Program-made: the position numbers and the translations under genes | Part shown: positions 1,696 to 22,110 of the stretch, piece by piece | Layout of the letters: every line of letters starts with the position of its first letter | Position numbering within the stretch: position 1 is the stretch's first letter | Virus record (IMG/VR): IMGVR_UViG_3300032893_000001 | Location: 24,183-88,182 of that record | Origin: a virus | DNA length: 64,000 nt | Strand: one strand, 5' to 3' | Notes under the pieces: model-generated | The model's database searches: none | The model's input: the letters and a program-made list of their open reading frames with translations, nothing else | What the model was told of the DNA's origin: nothing

Positions 1696-3021
1696 TCAGC
1701 CTAGCAAATTCGGGTTCCCACTGATGATGCTGCCTTGTACTCCCGTCGGGATCGTGATGAAGCCCGCGAGAGGAACACCAGGCTGAATCGGACCGGCCGT
1801 GATTTGAAGGATACAAGGGGCGCCCAGCGGCGGCATGCCAAGTCCGACGCCTCCTTGAATCGCGTCGCCTTGTCGTGCGACAGGCGTCGTGCCCTGTTGC
1901 AGACGAACGATGTCCCCCTTGATCTCCGTCGAGGGGCCGCCGTTGATCGTTGCGCCATCCGTCGCGGTCATGGAGATCGTCTTCGCGCTGAAGTCGAACG
2001 AGTCTCCGATGCTGACCTTCACCTTCTTTCCGAACTCGAAGTACGCGCTGCCCTTCGATCGGAGGAAGACGTTGCCAGCCTTGTCGAAGTAGAAGCGCAG
2101 AGAGACCTGCTTGACGACGCCGCCGTTGACGACGTCTCCGCTCACGGTCTTGAAGCCCTGCTGCGCGAGCGTGACTTCGTAGACGATGATCGGATCGAAC
2201 CCAAGGTTGCTCTGCGCATCCGCTCCGCTCGAGCCTGCATCTTCGCCCACCGGATTGAAGATCTTGCCCTTCGCGATTCGAAGATCGGCGTACTTGTCGT
2301 TGGCGTAGAGACGGTACGTCTGCATCTCCTGTGCGGGCGGATTCTGCACTGAAGGACCTTCTTGAATCCCCCACGAGACAGAACCGCCGACGTTCTGGTG
2401 TTCGTAGGCACCAGAGAGATCGAGAATCTTGTTGCCGATCGGAATGTAGATGCGCTTCGCAATTTCCGTCGCGCCGATCTCGATCACGCCGCCTCGATGC
2501 AACGTGATGAAGTTGCCATCGCGCGTTCGCAGAAAGATGTCGCCGGGCTTCGCAGGCGGTCGACCTGCGTCGAAGCGTGCGTCGACGTTCGGATAGGGAA
2601 CCGTCCCACCGCGCGACCGCGTACCCGCAGGAGCGTCTTGATCGTCGACGTTGTCTGGGTTCGCCGTTTGGCTTCCCTGCTGCGTCGTCACGATGGACTG
2701 ATTCGGGTCGTTCATCTTCGCGGTCGCGTTGGCCGTCTCCATCGGCGCGACGAACGACTGAACGTAGGGGGGAGAGCTGTCACTCGGCAGGCAAAGCATG
2801 ACCACGGCACCGACTTCAGGCATGACGTAGATGCCCTCGCCGTTGTTGTAATGGAGGTACGCCGCCGCAACCTGCACGTCCAAGTAGTACTTGCGGTCGA
2901 ACTGCGTGATGACGTCGACCGTCCAGTTCACCATGTTCACGTTCAGAACACGACCATGCACGATCTCCGCGGGGTCGTTCCCCGCGCGGTGGTGCAGCGT
3001 AGTTCGAAACCGTTTCGCCAT
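1696..3021 (-). CDS. Baseplate central spike / puncturing protein (gp5/gpV/VgrG-like) with PAAR-like tip
   Basis: N-terminal OB-fold-like segment (GRVLNVN..WTVDV..MPEVGAVV), beta-rich repeats, C-terminal PVARQGD...GSIISG. Confidence 0.65.
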   Translation of the reverse strand: MAKRFRTTLHHRAGNDPAEIVHGRVLNVNMVNWTVDVITQFDRKYYLDVQVAAAYLHYNNGEGIYVMPEVGAVVMLCLPSDSSPPYVQSFVAPMETANATAKMNDPNQSIVTTQQGSQTANPDNVDDQDAPAGTRSRGGTVPYPNVDARFDAGRPPAKPGDIFLRTRDGNFITLHRGGVIEIGATEIAKRIYIPIGNKILDLSGAYEHQNVGGSVSWGIQEGPSVQNPPAQEMQTYRLYANDKYADLRIAKGKIFNPVGEDAGSSGADAQSNLGFDPIIVYEVTLAQQGFKTVSGDVVNGGVVKQVSLRFYFDKAGNVFLRSKGSAYFEFGKKVKVSIGDSFDFSAKTISMTATDGATINGGPSTEIKGDIVRLQQGTTPVARQGDAIQGGVGLGMPPLGAPCILQITAGPIQPGVPLAGFITIPTGVQGSIISGNPNLLG

Positions 3022-3024
3022 GAG

Positions 3025-6000
3025 CTAGTAATGGTGCGGCGCGACCGCAGGCGTCTTTCCATGCGCCTTGGTGGAAGTAGCCAAGCCGAACTCGGCGCCG
3101 TACGCAACACCTGGAATCGGGTGAGCTCCGTGGATGTGCGAAGCCAGCCCCATCGAGGCCGCTTCCATCAACGTGTTGCGCAACCGCTGGTGCTGAAGCT
3201 TGGCCATCCAGTCTTCTTGCAGCGACAGCGGGAGCATGTCTACTCCCTGAAGAACCGGTTCGTGCAAGATCGGCTGCTTGCCTTTGAGCTCCGTGTCGTT
3301 GATCTTGCGGATCATCGACGTCGGGTAGAACTCGCCGCGGAGAACGTGCGGGTGGTCACCAGGGTCCTGGACCTTGGTGAGGTTGCTCATCGACTTGACC
3401 AGCGTCTCCACCGCGCGACGACGAAGCCCCTCGTCCTTGTACAAGTCGTAGATGCTGGCGGCGAGATGGTTCTGCACCTTCTCGATCGACTTCGTCGCCC
3501 GGTACAAGTCGTGCGGGTTGACGTACGTACGATTCGGATCGGAGAGCACTTGCCCTGCGTCGACGTGCAGACCAACCTCCGGCGGCTGCCATCCGACGTA
3601 GCTCTTGGCCGTACGGTCCGCATGCGGCAAGTCTTCGTGGAGCGGCATGCCGCCAGCGTCGCGACCGACGTGGTGCGGCTGCCCGTTCACCCAGATTTTC
3701 ACGCCGGTCGGGTCTTTCTCGATGCGCTCGATCTTTCCACTCGTCATCGCCACCGTCGCGGCGTTGGGAATCTTCCTCGGCAGCTTGGTGAGCTGTTCGA
3801 AGCGAGCGAACTGGTTCAAGATCTTCGAGCCGCCACCAGCCTCCTGCACGCCGCCGGTGTGGAAGCTCTTGAGCGTGAGCTGCACCGCGCGCTCTCCAAC
3901 TGCCTGCGCGGCCATGACGCCGACGTTCGTACCTAGAGGATGCAGAGCGCCGTTGACCGAGGGGCCGACGTCCATCTGGCAGAGGCCCTTCGGCATCTCG
4001 CACTTGAGCGGGCTACGAACAACGACACGCGCGTTCTTGTCCGCCGCTCGAATCTGAGCGACGAGGTCCGGCGTGAGCAGCGTATTGCGGGGAATGTGCA
4101 GGTTGCCTGCCTTGAAGTCCTGCGCGAGGTAGCGATCGTGCACGTCCTTCTCGCCGATGGACAACGATACACCGTTGTGGGTACCGCAGTCGTGCCCCTC
4201 GACCATCATGTTCATCGAGGTATTCATCAGGAGCTTCGAGATGGCGCCCGGCTCTTGAACCTCTTGCACCTTCATGACGGCGCCTCGACGCGCGCCATGG
4301 AGCTGCGTCCAGTAGCCTGCGAGATCGAGTCCTTCGGCGTAGCTCTTGGTCACGGGCGTCGGAATGAAGCGGTCCGCCGAGTCCTTGAGAATCATCGGCG
4401 CCAAGACCATCTGCTTGTACTGGTCCCAGCTCGGCTTCACGCCGGCGGCCTGCATCAGGAACAAATTCGACGGGTGCGCCGACATCGTGTCCGTGTGCGC
4501 CTTCTTCATATCGTCGGACGCCTTGATCCAGGCATCGACAGAGCGACGCTCCTTCTCTGCCTCGGAGATGTTCATCGCGTGGATCGCATCAACCTTCTTC
4601 TGCGCTTCGCCCAAGACCCGACCGCGCGCTGCCTTGTCCGGCGTCACGTCATCGAGGGACAACGAATGCGTGCCGATCGGCAACCACTTGTCCTTCACCA
4701 GGTCCGTCTTGATGAGGCCGAAGGACGCTCCGTTGCCGATATCCTTGATGTCGTTGACGATGCGACCGAACTCGTGTCGATGGTTGTTGCCCACGTCCGT
4801 GAGCAAAGAATCGAGCCCTTTCTTGTCGATCTTGAAGGAGAAGTCGGTGAGCATCTTCTGCTGCATCGCCTCCGGCAGCGCCGACGCAAGAAGAACTCGA
4901 CCAGGCGTCGTCTTCTTTCCCTTCATCGTCACCACGTCGGTGTAGCTCACAACGCCACGACGAAGAGCGTCTGCGACCTCCGCAGGGCTAGAAAAGAGAT
5001 GCTTCGTCTCGTTCCCGACGAGGGACAGCTTGTACAGCCCGAGCGCGCTCTCTAGCGTCGGTTGGTACATGACCTTGCCGGACGCCTCGTTGAAGATGTT
5101 GTTCGACGGGAACATCTTCTCTGCTTCTCGAACAGCTTCGCTGCTGATGGGAACGAACATCGCCATCGTGTCGCCGTCGAAGTCCGCGTTGTACCCACCC
5201 GTAACGAGCGGGTGGATCTGAATCGCACTTCCGTGAACGAGGCGGGGCTTGAACGCCTGGACGGAGTACTTGTGCAGCGCGGGGTCGCGCTTCAGCAGGA
5301 CGGGGCGCTCGCTCATGACGTGCTCGAGCGCGTGCCACACCGTGGGATCGTCCTTGCCCTTGTGTACGTCGGACAAGAGCTTCTGCGCTTCGAGCGGATT
5401 CTTCGCGAGGCCCTGAAGCACAAGCTGACGAACGACGAACGGTCGAAAGAGCGTGAGAGCGGCGTCCTTCGGAACGCCGACCTCGTCGAGGCCGAGAGCC
5501 GGCTCTGGAACGATCGTCGAGCGCATGGTCAGATCTTGTCGACGGGTGATCAGCGTCTTCTGGAAGAACCCTTCCTTCGGCTGCGACCCCTTGATCTGCT
5601 CGAGCAGCCCGCGCTCCTTGCGCTCACGGTTGAGTGAGCCGACGCCGACCAGCGCCTTGATGCCATCGTAGTAGTCGTCACGGAGCTTCTGCTTGCGCTT
5701 GTCCGTGAGGTTGGCCTGAAGAACCGGGTCCTTCAGCTTGTCGTTGACCTGTGCGAACTGAGCGTAGAGCCCGTTCACGTCCTCGTACTTCACGTTGCCA
5801 TCCTGCATCACCGTCAATGGGCGAATGACCGGAGGCAAGATCGGAAGGTTGTGCAAGATGTACGCTTCCGACGGCTTCAGATCGAGCTGATGAAGCGCCT
5901 CGAGGTACTTCACGCGCTTGAGCGAAGAGTCGAGCTTCGACGCAGATGCTGTGCGCAGCTCTCGACGAGCTCGTTGAAGTTCACCGGGAACCTCGATGCG

Positions 6001-9000
6001 ATCGAGTAGCATCTTGATGCCCGCGCCGCCGGCGACTCCATCCTTCGCAGAGACGATCTTGAACGTCGTCGGATGAACGCCGAGCTCACCGGAGACGACT
6101 CCATCGAAGTTCTTCTGGGTCAGCCCCGTCAAGCTCTTGATCGCGTTCTCGAACACCGGGTTCGGAACAGGCTCCGCAAGCTTGATGTGCGACCACTTCG
6201 TGCCGCCGTGCCCTCCCGTGACCTTCTCATCGAAGAGCCCGCCCGGCATCGGCTTGAGCTCTCCCGTCTTGTCCGCCTTCGCGCGAACGAGCTTGCCAGC
6301 GTCCTTCAGCTCACCGCCCGACATCGACAGAATGTGCTTGTCCGTCAACGGGGACAGCACGAGGTTGCTGCCATGCTTCTCGATGTTGATGCCCGCGCCC
6401 TTGAGCATCTCGGTGAACTTGTGGAAGGCGAACGTCGGCTTCGGAGGAGGAAGCGCAGTCCCTTCTTGAATCGCCTTCCACACGTCGATGTGCTGTGAAG
6501 GCCAACGCTTGGCCTCGTTCGATTGGGGATCGGTGCCTTCGCTCTTCCACGTCTGCATCTCGCGGATGTTCGCTCGAGCTCCGTGCGCCAGCATCGCGTA
6601 CAAGCCGAGTGCACCAAGACTCTGCCCACCTGCGTGACCGCCACTCGAGGGCTGAAGATTCATGTCGTAGCCCTCGGAGCCAGGCATGCCCGGCAAGTTC
6701 ATGCCGGAGCGGACCGAGAGCTTCTTCTCGACTTGATGCACGAGCTTCAGCATGTACTGCGGACCGGTGAGGGCCTTGCCGAGAGACTTCTTCGTGATCG
6801 GGTCGAAGAGCTCCTCGGTATCACTGATGCCATGCTGCTTCAGATCGCTTTTCACCTTCTCGAGGTAGTCGGGCGTCTTCGCATCGAAGTTCTTGACCAC
6901 GTAGGGCTTGCCGGTCTTTTCGGCGATCTTCGCCGCAGCAGTCTCGAGCATCTGCCCGATGTTCATACGACCGGGAACGCCCGACGGGTTCAGCAGCACG
7001 TCGACGGGCTTGCCGCTCTTGTCGTGCGGCATCTCGTGGTTCGGCAAGATCATCGTGACGATGCCCTTGTTGCCGTATCGCCCCGCCAACTTGTCGCCGA
7101 CCTGCATCGGCTCCGTGGTTCGCACGTGGACCGTGATCTTGTCCGGGCCGCGGTGAACACCGACGACCTCGCCTTCGAACTCGGAATCCCAACGAACGGA
7201 GCTGTCCGTGTGGTGTCCTAGTACGTGCTTGCGCATGGCAGCGAGTCCGGTTCGATCTTTCACCTCGAAGGGGCGCATCGCCACAATCAGTGGATCGCCA
7301 GGATGAACCTTCTGTCCGACGCGAACGACGCCCTTGTCGTCGAGCTTGTCGAACTGCTTCGAGTTGAAGACGCCAGGGTGCTGCTGGTTGAACTGCTTGG
7401 GATCGAAGACGACGTTGTCGATCTTGTCGAGACTGTGCTTGTGCAGGTGCAAGCTGGACAACTTGTCCGCCGCGGCCTGGCTGATGACCACGCCGTCCTC
7501 GAAGTTGTACCCCTTGAATGGCACGTACGAGACGCGCAGGTTCGTACCGAGCGCAAGCGCTCCGCCCTTGGAGAAGTTGGTGTCCGCGAGAACTTGCCCT
7601 GTCTTCACGTGCTGACCGACGCTGACTGTCGGCGTCGAGTGAAGGACGCTCTTCGCGTCGTTGAGCGGGTAGTAGTGGTACGTCTGCACCTCGTGATCCA
7701 CACCGTTCTTGTCCGTGACGATCACGCCATCCTTGAGCAGCTTCTTGACCGTCCCATCGACAGGAGAACGTTGCGACGTCTGATGCCCAAGAACGCGCTC
7801 GAAGGTGTCGATGCCTTCTGCTGCGACACCCGACGATACCTGCACCAACGGAGCCTCGCGGTTGACGAGGGAGATCGCTTGCTCCATGTGGCGGCTCGCC
7901 ATTCCCGCGCGGCCGCCCGAGTTGTTCCCCAAGAAGGGAATGAGGTTCGACGTCAGGTTGAAGAGCTGGCTCGAGTGCCGCAGAACGTAGTCCGCTTCTT
8001 GAAGCTTGCCTTCCTCGATCTTGTTGCCCTTGCCCACCATCTTTACGCGGCCGGAGGTGGCGTGGGGCTTTCCATCTTTCCACTCGACCTGGTCCGGCAG
8101 CGCGACACGACTCACAGCAAAAGTGTCTGGGCCGATGTCCTCGATACGCCCAGTCTTCATGTTGTAGAGCGGGATTCTCGCTTCGTTGCCGATCTTCTTC
8201 ACGCCAAGAGGCAGGCGCAGCGTTACCCCTGTCTTCTCTCCTTCCGGAGTGTTGATGGGATCGAGGAACCCGATGTGCGAAGGATTGATCATCTTCGCTT
8301 CGTTGTTGACACTGCGCTCCGTTTTGATGCCGCCAGGACCCATGATCGTGGTCTGCATCGCTGAAGACGCCATCTCGAGAGGGTTGATCTGACTGGCTGC
8401 TCGAGAGACTGCGGCTCCCGTAAAGAACTGTCGAATGGGCTCGTTGAAGACGTCGAATTTGACGACGTCGCGAATGCCGCTGACGCGTTGGCTGTTGAGC
8501 TGCCGCTGCACCTTCTGAGTAATCGGGCGCGCGACGCGACGAAGAGCGTCCTGCGCATAGTCGCCAACCGTCCTCAAATTCTTGAAGGTCAAAGAGTCGC
8601 GATCATCCTCTGGAGCGCCCGCCTGCACCTTGAGGAGCTTCTTAGTTGCAAGATGAAGAGCGTCCCCCGTCACGTGGTCGAATCGCTGACCGAGTGTGCG
8701 TTCCGTGACCTCGGGTAGAAGCCTGGACTCCTGCATCGTGTGGAACAGTAACTCCTCGACTTCCTTCCGAGACGTCGCCGGTTTGCCCGTAGTCGTCTTG
8801 TAGAACTGCTCGAGTGTTCCTGCCGTACGCTTAGCGTTCTTATTCGCGCTGAAGATCTCCTTACCCCACGACTTCTCGAGGTCGTCGTCACTCACCCCCA
8901 TCGTCTTGAGGAGCGGGTAGATTGGAAGCTTGGCCTTCTTGTACTTGACGGTGAACTGCTTCGAAGCGGGATCGAAGATGATGTCAAAGCTGCTTCGACT

Positions 9001-9411
9001 AACGACGTTGAACTTCGCGTTCAGTTCCCCGTTGTCTTGCCGACGAACGTAGACACCCGGCTTGAGCTGCCACTGGTTGTCGACCTGGTACTCCTGCCCA
9101 TCGACGATGTAGCTGTAGCGCTCGGTCGGCCGAGGGAGCTCCATCAGACGAACGCGTTTCTGGTCGATGACCTTGTTCGTGTCGTTGTCGCGCAGCGACA
9201 TCGTGGCGTAGACCGGCACCGCCCACGTCTTGCCGTCGATCTTCGCTTGGTGCTGCGAGCGAATGTCATTCGAGCGAAGGTTGTCTTCCACGTCGATGTT
9301 GTCGAGGTGAAGCGACAGCGTGCGCCCTCGGATCGGGAAGTGCGTCTTCACGGTGTCGACGACGTGGGAGCGCAGGTCTTCGAATGCTTCGTCGGGGTTC
9401 AGGTAGGCCAT
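3025..9411 (-). CDS. rpoBC: DNA-directed RNA polymerase, fused beta-beta' single polypeptide (2128 aa)
   Basis: beta motifs TPEGEKTG, GYNFEDG, GDKLAGRYGNKG, NPSGVPGRMNIGQ; beta' motifs LPILPPVIRP, RDPALH, catalytic NADFDGD (5170-5190), bridge helix HGARRG, trigger loop AQAVGERAVQLTLKSFHTGG. Confidence 0.97.
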   Translation of the reverse strand: MAYLNPDEAFEDLRSHVVDTVKTHFPIRGRTLSLHLDNIDVEDNLRSNDIRSQHQAKIDGKTWAVPVYATMSLRDNDTNKVIDQKRVRLMELPRPTERYSYIVDGQEYQVDNQWQLKPGVYVRRQDNGELNAKFNVVSRSSFDIIFDPASKQFTVKYKKAKLPIYPLLKTMGVSDDDLEKSWGKEIFSANKNAKRTAGTLEQFYKTTTGKPATSRKEVEELLFHTMQESRLLPEVTERTLGQRFDHVTGDALHLATKKLLKVQAGAPEDDRDSLTFKNLRTVGDYAQDALRRVARPITQKVQRQLNSQRVSGIRDVVKFDVFNEPIRQFFTGAAVSRAASQINPLEMASSAMQTTIMGPGGIKTERSVNNEAKMINPSHIGFLDPINTPEGEKTGVTLRLPLGVKKIGNEARIPLYNMKTGRIEDIGPDTFAVSRVALPDQVEWKDGKPHATSGRVKMVGKGNKIEEGKLQEADYVLRHSSQLFNLTSNLIPFLGNNSGGRAGMASRHMEQAISLVNREAPLVQVSSGVAAEGIDTFERVLGHQTSQRSPVDGTVKKLLKDGVIVTDKNGVDHEVQTYHYYPLNDAKSVLHSTPTVSVGQHVKTGQVLADTNFSKGGALALGTNLRVSYVPFKGYNFEDGVVISQAAADKLSSLHLHKHSLDKIDNVVFDPKQFNQQHPGVFNSKQFDKLDDKGVVRVGQKVHPGDPLIVAMRPFEVKDRTGLAAMRKHVLGHHTDSSVRWDSEFEGEVVGVHRGPDKITVHVRTTEPMQVGDKLAGRYGNKGIVTMILPNHEMPHDKSGKPVDVLLNPSGVPGRMNIGQMLETAAAKIAEKTGKPYVVKNFDAKTPDYLEKVKSDLKQHGISDTEELFDPITKKSLGKALTGPQYMLKLVHQVEKKLSVRSGMNLPGMPGSEGYDMNLQPSSGGHAGGQSLGALGLYAMLAHGARANIREMQTWKSEGTDPQSNEAKRWPSQHIDVWKAIQEGTALPPPKPTFAFHKFTEMLKGAGINIEKHGSNLVLSPLTDKHILSMSGGELKDAGKLVRAKADKTGELKPMPGGLFDEKVTGGHGGTKWSHIKLAEPVPNPVFENAIKSLTGLTQKNFDGVVSGELGVHPTTFKIVSAKDGVAGGAGIKMLLDRIEVPGELQRARRELRTASASKLDSSLKRVKYLEALHQLDLKPSEAYILHNLPILPPVIRPLTVMQDGNVKYEDVNGLYAQFAQVNDKLKDPVLQANLTDKRKQKLRDDYYDGIKALVGVGSLNRERKERGLLEQIKGSQPKEGFFQKTLITRRQDLTMRSTIVPEPALGLDEVGVPKDAALTLFRPFVVRQLVLQGLAKNPLEAQKLLSDVHKGKDDPTVWHALEHVMSERPVLLKRDPALHKYSVQAFKPRLVHGSAIQIHPLVTGGYNADFDGDTMAMFVPISSEAVREAEKMFPSNNIFNEASGKVMYQPTLESALGLYKLSLVGNETKHLFSSPAEVADALRRGVVSYTDVVTMKGKKTTPGRVLLASALPEAMQQKMLTDFSFKIDKKGLDSLLTDVGNNHRHEFGRIVNDIKDIGNGASFGLIKTDLVKDKWLPIGTHSLSLDDVTPDKAARGRVLGEAQKKVDAIHAMNISEAEKERRSVDAWIKASDDMKKAHTDTMSAHPSNLFLMQAAGVKPSWDQYKQMVLAPMILKDSADRFIPTPVTKSYAEGLDLAGYWTQLHGARRGAVMKVQEVQEPGAISKLLMNTSMNMMVEGHDCGTHNGVSLSIGEKDVHDRYLAQDFKAGNLHIPRNTLLTPDLVAQIRAADKNARVVVRSPLKCEMPKGLCQMDVGPSVNGALHPLGTNVGVMAAQAVGERAVQLTLKSFHTGGVQEAGGGSKILNQFARFEQLTKLPRKIPNAATVAMTSGKIERIEKDPTGVKIWVNGQPHHVGRDAGGMPLHEDLPHADRTAKSYVGWQPPEVGLHVDAGQVLSDPNRTYVNPHDLYRATKSIEKVQNHLAASIYDLYKDEGLRRRAVETLVKSMSNLTKVQDPGDHPHVLRGEFYPTSMIRKINDTELKGKQPILHEPVLQGVDMLPLSLQEDWMAKLQHQRLRNTLMEAASMGLASHIHGAHPIPGVAYGAEFGLATSTKAHGKTPAVAPHHY

Positions 9412-9428
9412 TGCGGGTGCTCTTGAGC

Positions 9429-9439
9429 AAGTTACCCCA
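9429..9439 (-). promoter_or_regulatory. Candidate promoter of the RNAP gene, TGGGG-TAACTT
   Basis: 17 nt upstream of RNAP ATG in a divergent intergenic region; fits TGNGGTAWYYT. Confidence 0.55.
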
Positions 9440-9473
9440 CGCGCAGAACGTCGAGCAAGACGAGTGCAGACGC

Positions 9474-9483
9474 AGGAACAAGA
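9474..9483 (+). promoter_or_regulatory. Candidate plus-strand promoter motif AGGAACAAGA
   Basis: Identical 10-mer is intergenic upstream of recA (30831); related to CGGWATAAGGG at 19818 and 24774. Confidence 0.4.
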
Positions 9484-9536
9484 ACTATGGCGAAAAACAT
9501 CGCGTTCGCCGCAAAAACGCAGCGTTGGAGAATTTG

Positions 9537-9665
9537 ATGACGAACTGCCCGATCGAGCCCGGCGACAACGCCGGCAAGAGGTTCGAAGAGATCATCGACC
9601 GGCTGTTTTGGAACGATGAAGACGTGGACGACGAGTGCGACGAGGAAGACCAAGAGGAGGACTGA
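9537..9665 (+). CDS. Small highly acidic protein (42 aa)
   Basis: GGAG SD then ATG 9537; MTNCPIEPGDNAGKRFEEIIDRLFWNDEDVDDECDEEDQEED; first gene of the plus-strand island. Confidence 0.6.
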   Translation: MTNCPIEPGDNAGKRFEEIIDRLFWNDEDVDDECDEEDQEED

Positions 9666-10960: not shown

Positions 10961-11253
10961 GTGGGCAGGGCAAGTTCCTCGCCACTCGGATGGCGCGGAA
11001 CCCGTACGGGGTGACGGACCATGTCGTCGAGCGCTTCATGGAGCGCTGGCTCGACAGCCGTCACCTCTACAAGCAAGAGGTGCGCAACCACATCAACCAG
11101 CAGATTGCAGCGGCGTTCAAAGACGGAACGGTGCTCGTCAACTACGACGGCAAGAACAAGGTTCCGATCTCCTTCATGGGCGTTGACGGGTGGGCCATCG
11201 TGGACTCCGCCGGCAACGTCGTCACCGTCTACACGAAGAACGAGGACAAGTAA
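10957..11253 (+). CDS. RelE/BECR-fold (DUF4258-like) small protein, possible RNase
   Basis: GTGA overlap, GGAGG SD; TDHVVERFMER near the N-terminus and terminal VVTVY strand. Confidence 0.5.
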   Translation: MSGQGKFLATRMARNPYGVTDHVVERFMERWLDSRHLYKQEVRNHINQQIAAAFKDGTVLVNYDGKNKVPISFMGVDGWAIVDSAGNVVTVYTKNEDK

Positions 11254-12467
11254 TGCACACCGTCGAAGATGTGATCCGAGTTGCCATCTCCGTTCCCCTC
11301 GGAGACCCGAACGATCCGAACTGCATGTGGGGGTTGCCGTTGCTCATCTGGGGGAATCCGGGCATCGGCAAGTCCTCCCGCATCAAGAAGCTTGCGGCGC
11401 TTCTGCAAACGTACGCGGGCGTCGTCCTGCCGGCAGGACGTCTTCCCGAGGACTTCGCGGGACTCGCAGTGCAGGATGGCAAAGGGGGCGTCAACCTCGT
11501 CAGCATCCTGATGGCGGTGCGTGAGCTCGTGGAGATCGGCGAGGGCATCTTGTTCCTCGACGAGATCAACACCGCCCGCAGCGCCGTTCAGTCCACACTT
11601 CTTGGCGTCGTACTGGACCGACGGTCTGGCGACGTCGAGATTCCTGGCAAGGTTCGTATCATCGCAGCCGCCAACCCTGTCGAGACCAGCGCCGGCGGCC
11701 ACCCGCTCGAAGCTCCTCTCGCCAATCGGTTCATCCATTACGAGATGGACAAGCCGACGGCTCGCGAATGGGGAAACTACGTGCTCGGCGTCAAGAACGA
11801 GGAGGAAGACGTCACGCCTCTCTACGACATCGAGACGAAGATCAAAGAGAACTGGGCGAGGGCGTGGCTCGAGGTTGCACCTGTCTTCGTGGGCTACGCA
11901 GAAAGGTTCCCGAAGGCCCTCGAGGACATTCCCGATGCGGGCTCTACAGAGCGAAGCAAAGCGTTCCCGACCGCGCGCACGATGGAATGGGCCGTCCGCG
12001 CAGCAACGACGTGCCGCATCCTGAACATCGGCGGGCAGCTCGAGTCCGTCATGCTCAAAGCGTGCATCGGCGCTGGTGCACGTGACGAGTTCCTCGCCTA
12101 CCGCCGCGACTTGAAGCTGCCTTCTCCGAAGCAGGTCTTGAGCGAAGGCTTCGAGCCGGACAAACGCCTCGATCGCAACTACGTCGTGTACATCTCTCTC
12201 GCTGCGTACATCACTGGACTTCCGCACAAGCAGGCGCAGGTCGACGCGGTGCTGAAAGCATGGCCGATTCTCCAACGTGGCTGCGAGGCTGGCTTCGCCG
12301 ATCTCGTCTACCCCGCGGCGGTCGAGCTCGTGAACAAGAACCTGAGCTCTCTCGGTGGAGAGAAACTGGCGAAAGCATCCGAGCCGGTGATCGGACGATT
12401 CGGAGATCGTCTGATGAAGAACGCGAAGAAGATCTACGACTACAACAAGAACAAGGAGGCCGTATGA
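11253..12467 (+). CDS. MoxR-like AAA+ ATPase
   Basis: Walker A GNPGIGKS, Walker B LFLDEIN, sensor AAANP, arginine finger LANRF. Confidence 0.9.
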   Translation: MHTVEDVIRVAISVPLGDPNDPNCMWGLPLLIWGNPGIGKSSRIKKLAALLQTYAGVVLPAGRLPEDFAGLAVQDGKGGVNLVSILMAVRELVEIGEGILFLDEINTARSAVQSTLLGVVLDRRSGDVEIPGKVRIIAAANPVETSAGGHPLEAPLANRFIHYEMDKPTAREWGNYVLGVKNEEEDVTPLYDIETKIKENWARAWLEVAPVFVGYAERFPKALEDIPDAGSTERSKAFPTARTMEWAVRAATTCRILNIGGQLESVMLKACIGAGARDEFLAYRRDLKLPSPKQVLSEGFEPDKRLDRNYVVYISLAAYITGLPHKQAQVDAVLKAWPILQRGCEAGFADLVYPAAVELVNKNLSSLGGEKLAKASEPVIGRFGDRLMKNAKKIYDYNKNKEAV

Positions 12468-13660
12468 GCGTAGAAGACGAGCTGCTCATGCTCGGTCGAG
12501 TGTACGTGCAGGCGCACGCGCCCTACTTCGGTAGGGCCGTGCTCAGCCTGATTCCACACGCCGAGCGTCGCGTTCCCACGCTCGGCGTCACGCCAGGCAT
12601 GATCCTCTACTACAACCCCGACTACCTGCGGAAGCTGGAGTCGGAGAAGAGAATCGGTACGCGTCTCTGGCATGAAGTACAGCACGTGTTGCGGCACTCC
12701 TTCACACGATTGATCGGGGTCAACCAGCGCATCGCGAACATCTGCGAGGACCTCGCCATCAACACGACAGGAAGGCACGACCCCGCGTGGGACTTCTCTC
12801 CTGACGGATTGCTCCCCGAGAAGTACGGCCTTCCCGTGGACCTGACTGCCGAGGAGTACTACGCACTGGTGCCGCCGAGTGCGGCGAACGAGGAAGTGAG
12901 CGCATGCGCAGGGCAATGCGGCGGCGTTGCCGGTAACGCGAGCAACGACGAGCTCGAGAAGGAACTCGACGAGCTGTACGGACGAGAGGAATCCGAAGTC
13001 GAGCAGATCAAACAGCAGGTTGCCGACGACATCATCCGTCACGAGAAGACGCATGGAACGATTCGCGGTGGCTGGTCTCAGTGGGCAAAAGCGATTCTCG
13101 CGCCGTCCACGATCCGGTGGCAGACCTTCTTCCAGAACACCATCCGCGCATGCGTCAGCAAGTTGTCGTACGGCGACAGCGACTACTCGATGGCGCGCCC
13201 TTCTCGTCGCTCGTATGGAATGCCTCCCGGACCCTTCCGTCCTGGTCTGGTTGGGGAGGAGATCGAGTTCGCGATCGTGCTCGACACGAGCGGTTCGATG
13301 GATATCGACCGACACATCAAGCCGTGCCTCCGAGAAGCGCGCGGCATCATCATGCAGTCAGGCGCAGAGGACGCCTGGTTCATTCAAGCCGACGCGATGT
13401 ACGACGAACGCATCCGTCGCGTACGCGCCTCAGAGCTCGTCGAAGTGGAGATCGTTGGGCGTGGTGGAACGGACTTTCGTCCCGCCATCGAACGAGCTCA
13501 ACGCCTTCATCCAAAGCCTTCCATTCTCATCTACCTGACCGACGGGTACGGTCCCGCACCCGATCGAGCACCGGCCGGGATGGAAGTCATCTGGTGCTTG
13601 GTCGGAGAACAAGTAAAGGAGCCAGCGACATGGGGTCACGTCGTTCGCGTTCCGAAGTGA
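12464..13660 (+). CDS. Metallopeptidase-vWA protein (DUF2201-like), partner of the AAA+ ATPase
   Basis: HEVQH (HExxH), MIDAS DTSGSM, GRGGTDF, YLTDG; ATGA coupling to the ATPase. Confidence 0.88.
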   Translation: MSVEDELLMLGRVYVQAHAPYFGRAVLSLIPHAERRVPTLGVTPGMILYYNPDYLRKLESEKRIGTRLWHEVQHVLRHSFTRLIGVNQRIANICEDLAINTTGRHDPAWDFSPDGLLPEKYGLPVDLTAEEYYALVPPSAANEEVSACAGQCGGVAGNASNDELEKELDELYGREESEVEQIKQQVADDIIRHEKTHGTIRGGWSQWAKAILAPSTIRWQTFFQNTIRACVSKLSYGDSDYSMARPSRRSYGMPPGPFRPGLVGEEIEFAIVLDTSGSMDIDRHIKPCLREARGIIMQSGAEDAWFIQADAMYDERIRRVRASELVEVEIVGRGGTDFRPAIERAQRLHPKPSILIYLTDGYGPAPDRAPAGMEVIWCLVGEQVKEPATWGHVVRVPK

Positions 13661-14457: not shown

Positions 14458-16509
14458 TCAGACGAGCGTCGTCATTCTACGCGGCGATCGCTGCTCAGGA
14501 AGCGGTCGCATGTCGACGCCCCCCTGCGAGCCGGCCATGATCTGCTCCTTGTCCTTCTGGAGCTGCTTCAGATACTGCCCCGTGAGCGCGGCGAGATCGG
14601 GGCTCGTGGTCTGGAGATTCTGAAGGGCCATCTGCTGCATCGCAGGGTCGAGGTGCGAGATCTGCTGGGCGTACGACATCGCCATGCTAGGCAAGTCGAC
14701 GTTCTGCTGCCCGCTCTGTTGCATGTTCTGCTGGCGTCCGAGACGGCTAGAGATCGCGCTGTGGAACTCTTGATCCGGCGTCGGTGCTTCCAAGAGTGCG
14801 CTTCCGGGCGGCAGCGGAGAGGCTTGGGGATCGGTGAGGTCTGCCGGCGCGCCCGCCGCGGCGGCCTGCTGACCACCAGGCGTTCCTGCCCCCAACTGGT
14901 CCTGAGCTCCGGGCTCTCCTGGCGCGGGTCCCTGCTGCATCGCCTGCTGCTGCACCTGCTGCGCCTTGGCTTGGTACTTGGCCATGACGAGAGACGACTC
15001 GCCCTGGATCTCAGCCATCGCGAGCTGCTGCGTCTTGGTTGCTTCGAGACGCGTCTTCGTCTCCTTCAGCATCAGCTTGTTCTCCTCCTCTTGCGAGAGG
15101 TCGGAGTCCGCGAGCAGCGTCGAGTCGCTGATCTTGTTGAGCTGGTTGAACTGGAGCATCAGCGACTTGCGCTGGATGTCGTCGGCCATCTTGAAGGGCT
15201 TGAAGCGCCCCTTCGCCATCGGCCAATCGAGGAAGTTGGAAACCTCCTGCATGACGAATCGGAACAGATGCTTGTGGCGCAACACGTAGCCGATGAAGGC
15301 ATTTTCGAGCATGCGCATCGACACGTTCGTCCCCGCGTAGGACAAGCCACCGAACACGAACTCGCGGGGCACTCCCATGCCAACGACGATCTGCTCGCTC
15401 CACTGCTGGATCTCGGGCGTCAGCATGAGCGCCTTGCCGTCACCACCGATGGTCTGGTTGCCCACCGGCAAAGGCAGGATGGGGATGTAGTTGTTGTCGT
15501 ATCGCCAACGACCGATCTCGGTCGCGACATGATCGCGCCAGTCGACAAGGTTGATGCTCGTGAAGGGATCGGCGGTACCGGCGGCAGGCTGCGGAAAGAG
15601 GATGCGCAGCGGCACGATGTGCTCGAGCAGGATTGCCTCCTGCGCCTTCTTCATGAGCTGAAGGTAGTACGTGTCCTTCAGGACAGGCAGAAGAAGAGGG
15701 ATGCCCCATCCTCGATCCTGCGTAGCGAGCGACGGACGACGAAGATGGAAGACCTTGTCCTTCGCGAGGACGAGTCCCTTCTGCTCCTTCAGCGCCTGGA
15801 TGAAGATCTGCGGGATGGTCTCGACCACTTCCTTGCGACCGATGATGATGTCGTTCCGGATGACCGCGGGGATCGTGTAGAAGTACGTGTAGTCGCCGGT
15901 GAGGTCGTTGTAGAGGATCTCCATGTCCTCCGGGTTCCAGCGAATGAGCTTCACGCCGCTCGGGTTCTTCAAGTACAAGTCCGTGACGATCGCATCACCC
16001 GTCGTGTGGCAACCAGGGCACGCGAGCCGGAACGAGTAGTTCGTGAAGACCCAGTGGTTGCGGCAACGGTTCGCAACCTCGCGCCAACCGCACGTCGCGC
16101 AGCGCAGGTACTTGTGGAAGTTGTAGCCGATGCTGATGAACGCGTTGCCGTAGGCGAAGTAGTCGAGTCCGACCTCCACCTGAAAGGCGCGGTACTGAAG
16201 ATGGTCTTGGAAGAAGTCCATCCAGCGATCTTTGGTGCGCGCGTCGTCGTGATCGATGATGAGGTCTGTGACGGGGTACTCACTCATCTTGAAGACGACC
16301 GCGTTGATCAACGGGTTCGTCAAGAAGTAGTACCGGCACCAACGGAACATCTGCTTGACCGTGACGGGCAAGTAGGTGTGCGCGACGTCGAAGAACGGCG
16401 AGGGGTAGTTGACTCCCTGGACAGGGCTGCCCTGAATGCGGCCGCGCGTCTGCGAGAAGCGGAAGGCGTTCGCCGGACCGCCGACACCCATGCCGCCTGC
16501 CATCGTCAT
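14458..16509 (-). CDS. Portal protein (probable), with Zn-ribbon insertion and Q/P/G-rich tail
   Basis: 683 aa; portal-like pattern (RWCRYYFLTNPLINAVV, DYFAYGNAF, VFHLRR..GWGIPLL, IVVGMGVPREF); CATC...CPGC insertion. Confidence 0.7.
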   Translation of the reverse strand: MTMAGGMGVGGPANAFRFSQTRGRIQGSPVQGVNYPSPFFDVAHTYLPVTVKQMFRWCRYYFLTNPLINAVVFKMSEYPVTDLIIDHDDARTKDRWMDFFQDHLQYRAFQVEVGLDYFAYGNAFISIGYNFHKYLRCATCGWREVANRCRNHWVFTNYSFRLACPGCHTTGDAIVTDLYLKNPSGVKLIRWNPEDMEILYNDLTGDYTYFYTIPAVIRNDIIIGRKEVVETIPQIFIQALKEQKGLVLAKDKVFHLRRPSLATQDRGWGIPLLLPVLKDTYYLQLMKKAQEAILLEHIVPLRILFPQPAAGTADPFTSINLVDWRDHVATEIGRWRYDNNYIPILPLPVGNQTIGGDGKALMLTPEIQQWSEQIVVGMGVPREFVFGGLSYAGTNVSMRMLENAFIGYVLRHKHLFRFVMQEVSNFLDWPMAKGRFKPFKMADDIQRKSLMLQFNQLNKISDSTLLADSDLSQEEENKLMLKETKTRLEATKTQQLAMAEIQGESSLVMAKYQAKAQQVQQQAMQQGPAPGEPGAQDQLGAGTPGGQQAAAAGAPADLTDPQASPLPPGSALLEAPTPDQEFHSAISSRLGRQQNMQQSGQQNVDLPSMAMSYAQQISHLDPAMQQMALQNLQTTSPDLAALTGQYLKQLQKDKEQIMAGSQGGVDMRPLPEQRSPRRMTTLV

Positions 16510-19864: not shown

Positions 19865-20407
19865 ATGAACCAAACGACGGTGCAGACCACTCAGCAGCCC
19901 GAGTGCTACGGCAAGATCTGGGACCAAAGCGCGGTCGAGTGCGCCGGCGGCTACGACGCGACCTTCGTGGCACCCAACGGCGCCAAAGTTCGCCCGCGCT
20001 GCGATTACTTCGACTCCTGCAAGATCCGAACAGCTCTGGCGAAAACCGAGGCGCAACAGCGCGCGCTGGTGGCCCCCTCGAGCCTGATCCGTCCGCAGCA
20101 GCCGGCGGCGCCGTATGCTCCACGATTCCAGCAGCCGCCTCCGATGCAGATGACTCCCCAAGCAGCGCCTCCGCCGGCGTACCCGAACCCGCACTATCCG
20201 TACCCAATCGTGGTCAGCCAGCCGGTGCAGATGATGCCGACCAACTACGGAATCCCTGCGTACCTGACCGTTCCGGAAGAGAGGCGGTCTGGTGAGCACT
20301 TCCTCGCTCCACTTGGACGCGAGATGCTTCGTGCAGGCGGCAAGGCTCTCGGGCATGCGTTCGCAGCCTGGCTCGATCACAACGCGTTCAGCAAGAAGGA
20401 AGAATGA
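19865..20407 (+). CDS. Hypothetical protein with N-terminal Cys4 Zn site and Pro/Gln-rich linker
   Basis: AGGAGG SD; CYG...EC...C..FDSC. Confidence 0.75.
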   Translation: MNQTTVQTTQQPECYGKIWDQSAVECAGGYDATFVAPNGAKVRPRCDYFDSCKIRTALAKTEAQQRALVAPSSLIRPQQPAAPYAPRFQQPPPMQMTPQAAPPPAYPNPHYPYPIVVSQPVQMMPTNYGIPAYLTVPEERRSGEHFLAPLGREMLRAGGKALGHAFAAWLDHNAFSKKEE

Positions 20408-22110
20408 ACAAGCTCTCCGATCGAGGGTACCTGGATACGAATCTCTGGGTACCCAAAGTCCACTTCAACGTTGAGGGCGTGAAGCGCGCCCTCACGTTCT
20501 CGTACTTGGAGGGGAAGGACCGTATCCCCACGGATCTCCCCCTCTACCGAGAGACGGCAGATCATCTGGTCGTGCCGCGTGAGTTCTGGCCGCGCGACCA
20601 ACTTCCGTTCGAGATCGTCGATTGCCGACCGCAGCGCTACTCGCGCTCTCCTGTTCGGAGTCGCATCACGCTGGACCACAAAAGGCAGAACGACGGCTCC
20701 CTCATTCCCACTGGCAGCGACGTTCAACGCAAGTCGGTCGATGCGTTGATGAGCGCGCGCGGTGGCATTCTCCAACTTGCCTGCGGTAAGGGCAAGACAG
20801 TCGTCTTCCTGGAGGTCATTGCTCGTTCGGGCATGCCAGGACTGATCGTGGTCGATAACACGCAGCTTCTCGAGCAGTGGTCGGAGGCGATCTCCACCTT
20901 CTTGGATGTTCCTGGCGGCGTCGGCCTCATTCAAGAGCAGACGTTCGACTGGAAGAAGTGGGTCGTGCTCTCGACATACCAAACCCTCGCAAGACGCGCA
21001 GCCGACATGCCAGAAGAAGTTCGTCGGTGGTTCGGCATCATCGGCTGGGACGAGGCGCATCACGTCAACGCACCGACGTTCTCTCGAAGCGCAGACTTGT
21101 TCTACGGGCGCCGGTACGGTCTCACCGCGACACCCGAACGAGAAGATGGCCTGCACGTCATCCACGAGTTCCACTTCGGCAAGGTTCTCTACCGAGACCT
21201 CGTTCAGGAGATGCGTCCACGCATCTACTTCACGTACACAGGACTCGAGTTGAACATGCAAGACCCTGCGGTGGTCGACGCGACTTGCACGGACAACGGT
21301 GAGCTGCACCTGTCCAAGCTCGCCGTCTACTTCGGACAGTGGCGCCCGCGCCTCGACTTCATCCAGAACGAGATCCGCAACGCCCTCGCGCAAGACCGAA
21401 AGATCCTCGTGCTCTCGAACTCCATCGACGAGCTCGTGAATCTACTCGCGCTCTGGAATGGCAACACGGAGCTCTACACCGACATCAGTGTCGATCCGAG
21501 CGAGGTCGGAGAGACCGTGCAACCGCAACGCCTCGACGATGTCGCTCTTGCGAAGATGCTGACGGCCATCAGCAATCTCGAGACGGCGTTGCAAGACGCG
21601 TCACTCGACAAGGACGTCTTCGAAGGGCTCGAGAAGGAGATCGCGATCTACAAGAGCACCATCAAAGCGCATGAGGTGTTCGAGAAAGTCGAAGCCCTTC
21701 GACGGAAAAAGCAACGTGAGTACATCGCTCGAACCCTGCGTAAGGACAGTGACGCAGGACTGATGATTCACCGTGTCGATCCGAAGCATCGGATGAAGAT
21801 GCTCAAGGAGAAGAGGGTCACCTTCGCCATCATGAAGTACGGCAAGGAGGGCCTCGACAACCCCGCGCTCGACACCGTGATCATTCTCGAGCCGATGAGC
21901 TCGAAGAACATGCTTCAGCAGGTGATGGGCCGAGTTCTCCGTCACAAGGAAGGAAAGAAAGCACCGGTCGTCGTGGTGCTAGAAGACAACATCGGGCCGA
22001 TGATCGGCATGTGCCAGAAGATGCGGAAGCACCTTCGACAGTGGCCTATCGACGACGGCGGTCCGTACGAGTACGAGCTACTGAACTACCCCAAAGGAAG
22101 AAAACGATGA
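20404..22110 (+). CDS. Superfamily 2 DNA helicase (UvsW/XPB-like)
   Basis: Motif I CGKGKT, motif II DEAH, motif III TAT, motif V EGLD, motif VI QVMGRVLR. Confidence 0.92.
   Translation: MNKLSDRGYLDTNLWVPKVHFNVEGVKRALTFSYLEGKDRIPTDLPLYRETADHLVVPREFWPRDQLPFEIVDCRPQRYSRSPVRSRITLDHKRQNDGSLIPTGSDVQRKSVDALMSARGGILQLACGKGKTVVFLEVIARSGMPGLIVVDNTQLLEQWSEAISTFLDVPGGVGLIQEQTFDWKKWVVLSTYQTLARRAADMPEEVRRWFGIIGWDEAHHVNAPTFSRSADLFYGRRYGLTATPEREDGLHVIHEFHFGKVLYRDLVQEMRPRIYFTYTGLELNMQDPAVVDATCTDNGELHLSKLAVYFGQWRPRLDFIQNEIRNALAQDRKILVLSNSIDELVNLLALWNGNTELYTDISVDPSEVGETVQPQRLDDVALAKMLTAISNLETALQDASLDKDVFEGLEKEIAIYKSTIKAHEVFEKVEALRRKKQREYIARTLRKDSDAGLMIHRVDPKHRMKMLKEKRVTFAIMKYGKEGLDNPALDTVIILEPMSSKNMLQQVMGRVLRHKEGKKAPVVVVLEDNIGPMIGMCQKMRKHLRQWPIDDGGPYEYELLNYPKGRKR

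Follow-up and report, generated by a model that had tools for sequence, protein, structure and literature searches.

Does a tailed phage encode beta and beta' of a bacterial-type RNA polymerase (RNAP) as one continuous polypeptide, and could such a chain work with no partner other than a phage sigma factor? The question is raised by a stretch of viral DNA of 64,000 nucleotides (nt; hereafter the window), which covers bases 24183-88182 of the 184,953-bp IMG/VR virus record IMGVR_UViG_3300032893_000001, a record rated 100% complete. We identified a single minus-strand open reading frame (ORF) at 3025-9411, termed P0001, which starts with ATG and encodes a 237-kDa single chain of 2128 amino acids (aa). 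The chain is divided as follows.

3025..9411, minus strand: fused beta-beta' RNA polymerase P0001, 2128 aa (ORF, Pfam and alignments)
6379..9411, minus strand: beta module, aa 1-1011, matching residues 32-1059 of a 1104-residue cyanobacterial beta
6364..6378, minus strand: five-residue linker KHGSN, aa 1012-1016 (sequence, relatives' alignment and model)
3028..6363, minus strand: beta' module, aa 1017-2128, matching residues 171-1132 of the 1161-residue C. difficile beta' (E 1e-96)

A preliminary description of this stretch had read beta followed by beta' in one 2128-aa ORF and had proposed a search with Rpb1 and Rpb2 domain profiles. The domain order found with Pfam agreed with that reading: RNA_pol_Rpb2_3 (aa 339-400) and Rpb2_6 (aa 585-902, E 1e-60) matched the first half of P0001, and Rpb1_2 (aa 1290-1433, E 6e-30) and Rpb1_5 (aa 1694-2020) matched the second, together with a match to Rpb1_1 (aa 1151-1229) below the cut-off. 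The beta module and the beta' module are both complete. The beta C-terminal motif, FHKFTEMLKGAGINIE (aa 996-1011; window 6379-6426), and the beta' N-terminal motif, LVLSPLTDKHILSMSGGEL (aa 1017-1035; window 6307-6363), enclose the linker, in line with the run-through of about five residues that had been placed near 6340-6420. The length is likewise several hundred residues below that of cellular beta plus beta', as described, with 2128 aa compared with 2749 in Salmonella and 2390 in S. aureus. An N-terminal MAxLDP is kept among relatives, and the annotated ATG start of the ORF is therefore right. Across the whole genome, Rpb2_6 and Rpb1_2 each matched once, inside the fused ORF, and a second RNA polymerase was not found in the 185-kb genome with these profiles. 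The product of the ORF is thus probably the catalytic core of an RNA polymerase that is specific to phages, belongs to the bacterial-type two-barrel enzymes and is made as a single chain.

We collected 71 independent loci of relatives, comprising 69 from IMG/VR and two from bacterial assemblies (40-66% identity). One open frame of at least 1990 aa was present in 61 of them, and the remaining 10 were ended by a contig end or held only a short match near one. The best 120 database relatives were all fused, with lengths of 2119-2171 aa without inteins and greater lengths with them. When aa 760-1460 were searched against 1.8 billion representatives of clusters at 50% identity, the best 150 cluster matches all crossed the junction. 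The fused family is very large, with at least 150 such clusters. The window protein does not stand alone but is a typical member of this single-chain family, which appears to be undescribed. The fused arrangement is ancestral to a large clade of phages of roughly 180-200 kb. The linker was five aa long in all 64 aligned relatives, with the pattern [K/R/Q]-x-G-x-x and an invariant Gly1014.

The nearest cultured phages are Arash (OQ632216) and Vibrio D69/D148/D181, at 31% identity to P0001. Arash and D69 share with P0001 the junction with its 5-aa Gly linker and the loss of a zinc-binding domain. Arash further resembles the window phage in a homologous sigma factor (gp10) and in a portal gene upstream on the same strand, and these genomes measure about 180-187 kb. 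The polymerase of Arash and D69 is encoded by a gene of 1525-1527 aa, containing beta and the N-terminal part of beta', and a second gene of 606-609 aa. Their split falls at E. coli beta' 551-555, whereas P0001 is continuous through the corresponding aa 1497-1499.

To describe the junction, we modelled aa 940-1330 with AlphaFold2 (mean predicted local distance difference test score (pLDDT) 85.5; predicted template modelling score (pTM) 0.80). The best PDB matches of this model were bacterial beta' chains. Two strands, 1008-1013 and 1016-1021, were modelled around the two-residue turn G1014-S1015 with a pLDDT of 89-96. Based on this model, the fusion looks like a hairpin built from two neighbouring strands. 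If, as we assume, both strands belong to the RNAP clamp, the fusion would turn an inter-subunit contact into a hairpin. In comparison with Salmonella (E. coli numbering), the junction costs merely beta 1339-1342 and beta' 1-14.

These results bear on two explanations in which the single chain would be deceptive. A mis-assembly, a frameshift error or contamination of the viral bin with bacterial rpoBC has a negligible probability: the fusion is uninterrupted in the 61 independent assemblies, the finished genomes of Arash and D69, both cultured phages, share the junction, as does a closed Pendulispora chromosome, phage genes flank the polymerase gene, and bacterial enzymes are only 27% identical to P0001. 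The recurrence of the same frame in independent loci and in cultured phage genomes therefore excludes an assembly artefact, and the concern of the preliminary description that the fusion might be absent from relatives has been dispelled. Alternatively, the chain could be a polyprotein from which cleavage at the K-x-G linker, by a head protease for instance, releases separate beta and beta'. Such a linker is indeed short and conserved ([KRQ]-x-G). However, the model confidently places it in a tight turn of two residues within a sheet, which would be a poor protease substrate, the invariant Gly suits a turn, and Arash gp206 was reported as one protein with 100% coverage (PMC10585845). We consider processing of this kind highly improbable. 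The Arash paper annotates the genes as beta and beta', with gp206 simply as beta, and leaves the fusion unmentioned (PMC10585845).

The single-chain enzyme was then examined by residue-level alignment of P0001 with beta and beta' from Salmonella (E. coli numbering) and S. aureus, which located the following elements.

8320..8427, minus strand: equivalent of rifampicin-pocket cluster I, aa 329-364 (alignment)
7189..7284, minus strand: beta flap-tip region, shortened, aa 710-741; putative site for sigma region 4
7063..7098, minus strand: beta active-site motif GDKLAGRYGNKG, aa 772-783, the GDKxxGRHGNKG double-psi barrel lysine motif
6199..6204, minus strand: place where the beta' zinc-binding domain would lie (E. 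coli beta' 68-99, four Cys; absent here), between aa 1070 and 1071 (alignment)
5632..5793, minus strand: beta' clamp helices, diverged from bacteria, aa 1207-1260; modelled docking site of the phage sigma
5170..5190, minus strand: catalytic NADFDGD (magnesium-binding loop), aa 1408-1414 (alignment)
4915..4923, minus strand: aa 1497-1499 (E. coli beta' 551-555), frame continuous; split point of beta' in Arash and D69
4213..4326, minus strand: bridge helix, aa 1696-1733 (alignment)
3970..4188, minus strand: second zinc site, C1742/C1804/C1811 (E. coli C814/C888/C895), with Asp1814 as fourth ligand
3769..3909, minus strand: trigger loop, aa 1835-1881, lacking the SI3 insertion; its His, the counterpart of E. 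coli H936, is retained

According to the alignment, every catalytic element is retained, namely the beta lysines, NADFDGD, the bridge helix and the trigger loop. K774 and K782 of beta, as well as D1410, D1412 and D1414 of the magnesium-binding loop, were invariant across 64 relatives. The insertions SI1 (beta 229-345) and SI2 (beta 938-1049), the segment beta 1125-1178 and the trigger-loop insertion SI3 (beta' 949-1133) are missing in P0001 and S. aureus alike. Losses specific to the phage comprise beta 1-26, beta' 68-99, beta' 150-170, beta' 554-570 and the C-terminal tail. The compactness of the chain is mostly the absence of lineage-specific insertions, as in Firmicutes, and the phage-specific loss is the beta' zinc-binding domain. 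This loss is common to all fused relatives, Arash and D69, while S. aureus retains the domain, and it might uncouple the enzyme from host factors that use the domain. In the rifampicin pocket, four positions are changed relative to E. coli (Q513 to R, D516 to S, H526 to S and S531 to T). An enzyme with a pocket remodelled in this way would be expected to be rifampicin-insensitive.

The three cysteines of the second zinc site, C1742, C1804 and C1811, are the sole cysteines in the 2128-aa protein. Asp as the fourth ligand was observed in the window protein and in 2 of the 64 relatives, and one relative, P0231, has zero cysteines. Intein-like enlargement was seen in 13 of the 61 full-length relatives, with frames of 2217-3008 aa (L043-L045, L047, L055, L056, L058-L060, L064, L073). 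Database relatives reach up to 4739 aa and carry PF14528 homing-endonuclease domains; the additions look like inteins. NADFDGD was not found intact in some of the enlarged relatives, implying that an intein may sit there. The window copy contains no intein.

The relationship of P0001 to bacterial enzymes was assessed by identity, structural matches and phylogeny. P0001 is 27% identical to the enzyme of Salmonella or S. aureus, and those two are 57% identical to each other. The PDB matches for beta reached 5e-81 for bacterial structures, compared with 2.5e-29 or weaker for archaeal and eukaryotic ones. A beta' tree with 19 rows (IQ-TREE quick search, LG+C20+F+G4) contained a branch with a Shimodaira-Hasegawa-like approximate likelihood ratio test (SH-aLRT) value of 100, which set 13 fully fused proteins, Arash and D69 apart from three bacteria and Rhizobium phage TM30. 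The window protein clustered with P0003, P0030 and an integrated copy in Pendulispora rubella (SH-aLRT 96-100). The preliminary description had named nesting inside an ordinary bacterial clade as an outcome that would overturn it; in this small sampling, both the branch and the 27% identity separate P0001 from such a clade. By these comparisons, P0001 appears to lie outside the bacterial enzymes sampled, including the beta' of the likely host lineage.

Two further phages were considered in this context. Cobetia phage Carin-5, a possible two-gene relative, had a branch of 8.15 in the first beta' tree and distorted its root, and it was excluded from the second. The Carin-5 gene taken as beta' may be mis-assigned. 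The cultured Rhizobium phage RHph_TM30 (L085, 5995-9378), with a 207-kb genome, encodes a separate 1127-aa beta' that has the zinc-domain cysteines. Its polymerase groups with bacterial beta' and appears to represent a different, more bacterial-like phage lineage.

The copy in Pendulispora rubella (L078), a relative of 2045 aa, is located within the closed 13.6-Mb chromosome CP089983.1 at 9,190,428-9,216,565. Its neighbours are AAA_5, DUF2201 and a spike-like gene, and about 9 kb downstream there is a gene for a bacterial sigma-54 activator. The locus is an integrated phage or a remnant of one. The own beta' of Pendulispora, a member of the Myxococcota, is 61% identical to that of Salmonella, compared with 30-34% for the integrated copy. 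Together with two Myxococcota assembly matches among the relatives, this copy points to myxobacteria as hosts, which is a lead and not a proof.

P0001 resembles bacterial RpoB and RpoC in its domain order, catalytic motifs, bridge helix, trigger loop, second zinc site, clamp helices and flap, and in being accompanied by a sigma70-family factor. It differs from them as a single chain of low identity (27%) with three cysteines and a remodelled rifampicin pocket. Unlike the bacterial core, it has neither the beta' zinc-binding domain nor lineage-specific insertions, and no alpha or omega gene stands alongside it in the phage. Fusions of the beta C-terminus to the beta' N-terminus occur naturally in Helicobacter and Wolbachia and have been engineered from rpoB-rpoC in E. 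coli, and tethering is compatible with activity. These cellular fusions are ordinary members of bacterial clades that work with alpha2 and omega. By the tree, the phage fusion arose independently of them, in a lineage far from the bacteria sampled.

Among phages, two-barrel enzymes without alpha are encoded by phiKZ and AR9 and represented by crAss-like gp66, YonO and the TMP-fused enzyme of P23-45, and some of these are packaged in virions for early transcription (PMC7598289, PMC7824862, PMC13282480). The phiKZ and AR9 enzymes are divided among four or five polypeptides and lack a sigma70-family factor, whereas the window phage has one chain and a sigma with regions r3 and r4. The Pfam beta and beta' models do not reach the crAss and YonO types, which have diverged too far, while they match P0001 with its near-complete bacterial-type core, in line with the earlier impression that it is more bacterial-like than the phiKZ and crAss enzymes. 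A literature search, which excluded most subscription journals, found no paper describing a fused phage beta-beta'.

The mReC set comprises 97 contigs of multisubunit-RNAP-encoding Caudovirales (Weinheimer & Aylward 2020, PMC7481178). Like the window phage, they are large uncultured tailed phages in which beta and beta' are recognisable by cellular profiles and lie outside cellular clades (PMC7481178). The portion of Supplementary Data 2 available to us lists separate beta (900-1520 aa) and beta' (890-1390 aa) proteins, and none near 2100 aa (PMC7481178). The mReC capsids are of the Gp23 type, PF07068 (PMC7481178), whereas the window genome gave no PF07068 match at E<=1. We also asked whether relatives of the window are mReC contigs; some metagenomes are shared, and no contig is in common. 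Because the mReC forms are two-gene, carry another capsid and share no contigs with our set, the fused clade appears to lie outside the described one. The preliminary description had stated that RNAP-encoding tailed phages are known from metagenomes, and mReC bears this out; the two-gene, Gp23-type forms in that portion of the data give no support to a link of P0001 with mReC. Several mReC contigs in the same portion encode beta and beta' in two sets, one of about 1362+1009 aa and the other of about 1019+899 aa, hinting at two polymerases per phage (PMC7481178).

We identified a 248-aa sigma70-family factor encoded by the same phage outside the window (G000:C1:146923-147597), which is a homolog of the Arash sigma gp10 (E 1.8e-24) and carries Pfam Sigma70_r3 and r4. 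In total, 80 sigma homologs were found, several of them on contigs with exactly the same lengths as RNAP-bearing ones. A prediction of the sigma-binding surface had been proposed in the preliminary description, and the complex model of beta' aa 1017-1500 with sigma gave a score of 0.81, with 0.01 for the best control (the score mark is reached by 58 of 80 solved complexes and by 2 of 110 mismatched pairs). Agreement of contacts between runs was at least 49%, and the pLDDT of the partner was at least 75. The modelled interface joins beta' 1199-1246, in the clamp helices, to sigma 35-78, corresponding to the canonical contact of sigma region 2. Searches for alpha (PF01000, PF01193) and omega (PF01192) gave no match in the 185-kb genome at E<=1.

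The surroundings of the gene and published data on Arash suggest when such an enzyme might act. Two genes flank the polymerase gene on its own strand.

14458..16509, minus strand: portal protein, 30% identical to Arash gp204 (E 3e-77), upstream of the polymerase gene
1696..3021, minus strand: 441-aa gene, candidate gp5/gpV-like baseplate spike, 3 nt downstream of the polymerase gene

A portal gene was located upstream on the same strand as the polymerase in 61 of 61 relatives' loci, and also in Arash and D69. A homolog of the 441-aa gene directly followed the polymerase gene in the 61 loci (median gap 51 nt); unlike the window phage, Arash and D69 have no spike-like gene after their polymerase genes. 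The likeness of the 441-aa protein to the gp5/gpV spike comes from language-model features and is a lead only, and tblastn against cultured phages gave no match. In virion preparations of Arash, gp206 was the most-detected protein, with 3516 spectra, 128 peptides and 100% coverage, and gp216 and the sigma gp10 were likewise detected (PMC10585845).

We propose that promoters would be recognised by the phage sigma, docked on the beta flap tip and on the clamp helices of beta', which have diverged. The fusion would tether both halves and so take over at least part of the assembly role of the alpha dimer. The polymerase would be made alongside virion proteins, packed in the capsid with sigma, and injected, and phage transcription would start without the host polymerase. 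As the sole polymerase in the genome, it would therefore transcribe later genes too. Packaging and injection of the polymerase together with sigma is, on its own, the step towards which we lean slightly. The complete proposal, in which the chain and the phage sigma form a self-sufficient machine that needs no alpha dimer or omega, is carried in the capsid, is injected and is rifampicin-insensitive, is offered tentatively, as one possibility.

Several points weigh against this proposal. The tree, with three bacteria and no archaeal or eukaryotic outgroup, has no bearing on deep branching. The sigma docking model is that of a textbook pair, and it may echo holoenzymes already solved instead of being a true prediction; it therefore shows likeness rather than binding. 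The case for alpha independence comes down to a phage genome without an alpha gene, and the natural Helicobacter and engineered E. coli beta-beta' fusions still use alpha. The single chain could accordingly need the host alpha dimer, and perhaps omega, with alpha2, phage beta-beta' and phage sigma as the active form. Besides the example of the cellular fusions, the conserved C-terminal regions of beta and beta', which P0001 retains, would fit this arrangement. However, P0001 has just 27% identity to any bacterial enzyme, the hosts apparently range over Myxococcota (by association only), Salmonella and Vibrio, which makes a single conserved alpha interface less likely, and other phage multisubunit polymerases function without alpha (review PMC13282480). 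We regard a requirement for host alpha as rather unlikely.

The evidence for virion delivery is subject to a similar ambiguity. The Arash virion list contains 116 proteins, including ribonucleotide reductases and a nucleotide kinase (PMC10585845), and cytoplasmic carry-over is therefore plausible. In addition, an N-terminal extension usable as a capsid-targeting signal is not visible on the polymerase. Both observations would suit an enzyme that is made after infection for middle and late genes, like the non-virion polymerase of phiKZ, while the host polymerase reads the early genes; the Arash virion signal would then be carry-over of an abundant cytoplasmic protein. Against such a role, gp206 ranked first in spectra, above the major capsid protein, the gene position between portal and spike is kept in 61 loci, and the genome holds a single polymerase. 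A purely post-infection enzyme thus seems doubtful to us, and delivery with the virion remains the reading that we slightly prefer.

The remaining features around the polymerase gene were as follows. The window phage also encodes a DnaB-like helicase, a primase, PolA, a UvsX-like recombinase and a second helicase, in addition to the portal. One noncoding feature precedes the polymerase gene.

9412..9540, no strand: divergent intergenic region upstream of the polymerase gene (read directly from the letters)

Within it, TGGGGTAACTT ends 17 nt ahead of the polymerase ATG, and the polymerase mRNA leader may therefore be very short. Direct reading of window 9412-9470 revealed no clear Shine-Dalgarno-like sequence before the ATG. 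A small ORF (9384-9665, plus strand) diverges from the polymerase gene and has an extremely acidic C-terminus (DEDVDDECDEEDQEED); a homolog of it was absent from the relatives' loci. Arash (gp205) and D69 (0260) have a small conserved gene immediately upstream of the polymerase, which was considered as a candidate for an extra subunit; the window lacks such a gene and has the divergent intergenic region there instead. On the opposite strand between portal and polymerase, we observed a MoxR-like AAA_5 ATPase (11190-12467, plus strand) and a DUF2201/VWA-like protein (12260-13660, plus strand), a pair found again in 35-36 of the relatives' loci as well as in Pendulispora. A parallel with Arash gp217 as regards a virion helicase was rejected, since the window helicase (20404-22110) gave no match in the Arash genome.

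The prevailing view is that the bacterial polymerase requires the alpha dimer as a scaffold for its assembly. To our knowledge, the phage multisubunit polymerases described so far are broken into fragments (phiKZ, AR9) or have diverged beyond recognition (crAss, YonO). The family represented by P0001 has a near-complete bacterial-type core in one chain, together with its own canonical-type sigma, across hundreds of phage lineages. It fills a gap in the published census of RNAP phages, in which the portion available to us holds two-gene forms only. If active alone, the enzyme would allow sigma-dependent initiation to be modelled with two proteins and the need for alpha, omega and the zinc domain to be tested directly, and it would likely serve as a rifampicin-insensitive orthogonal polymerase. 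If the self-sufficient reading is true, no simpler cellular-type polymerase that depends on sigma would be known, and it could be studied in two cultured phage systems. These questions can already be tested in the cultured relatives, Arash (Salmonella) and D69 (Vibrio).

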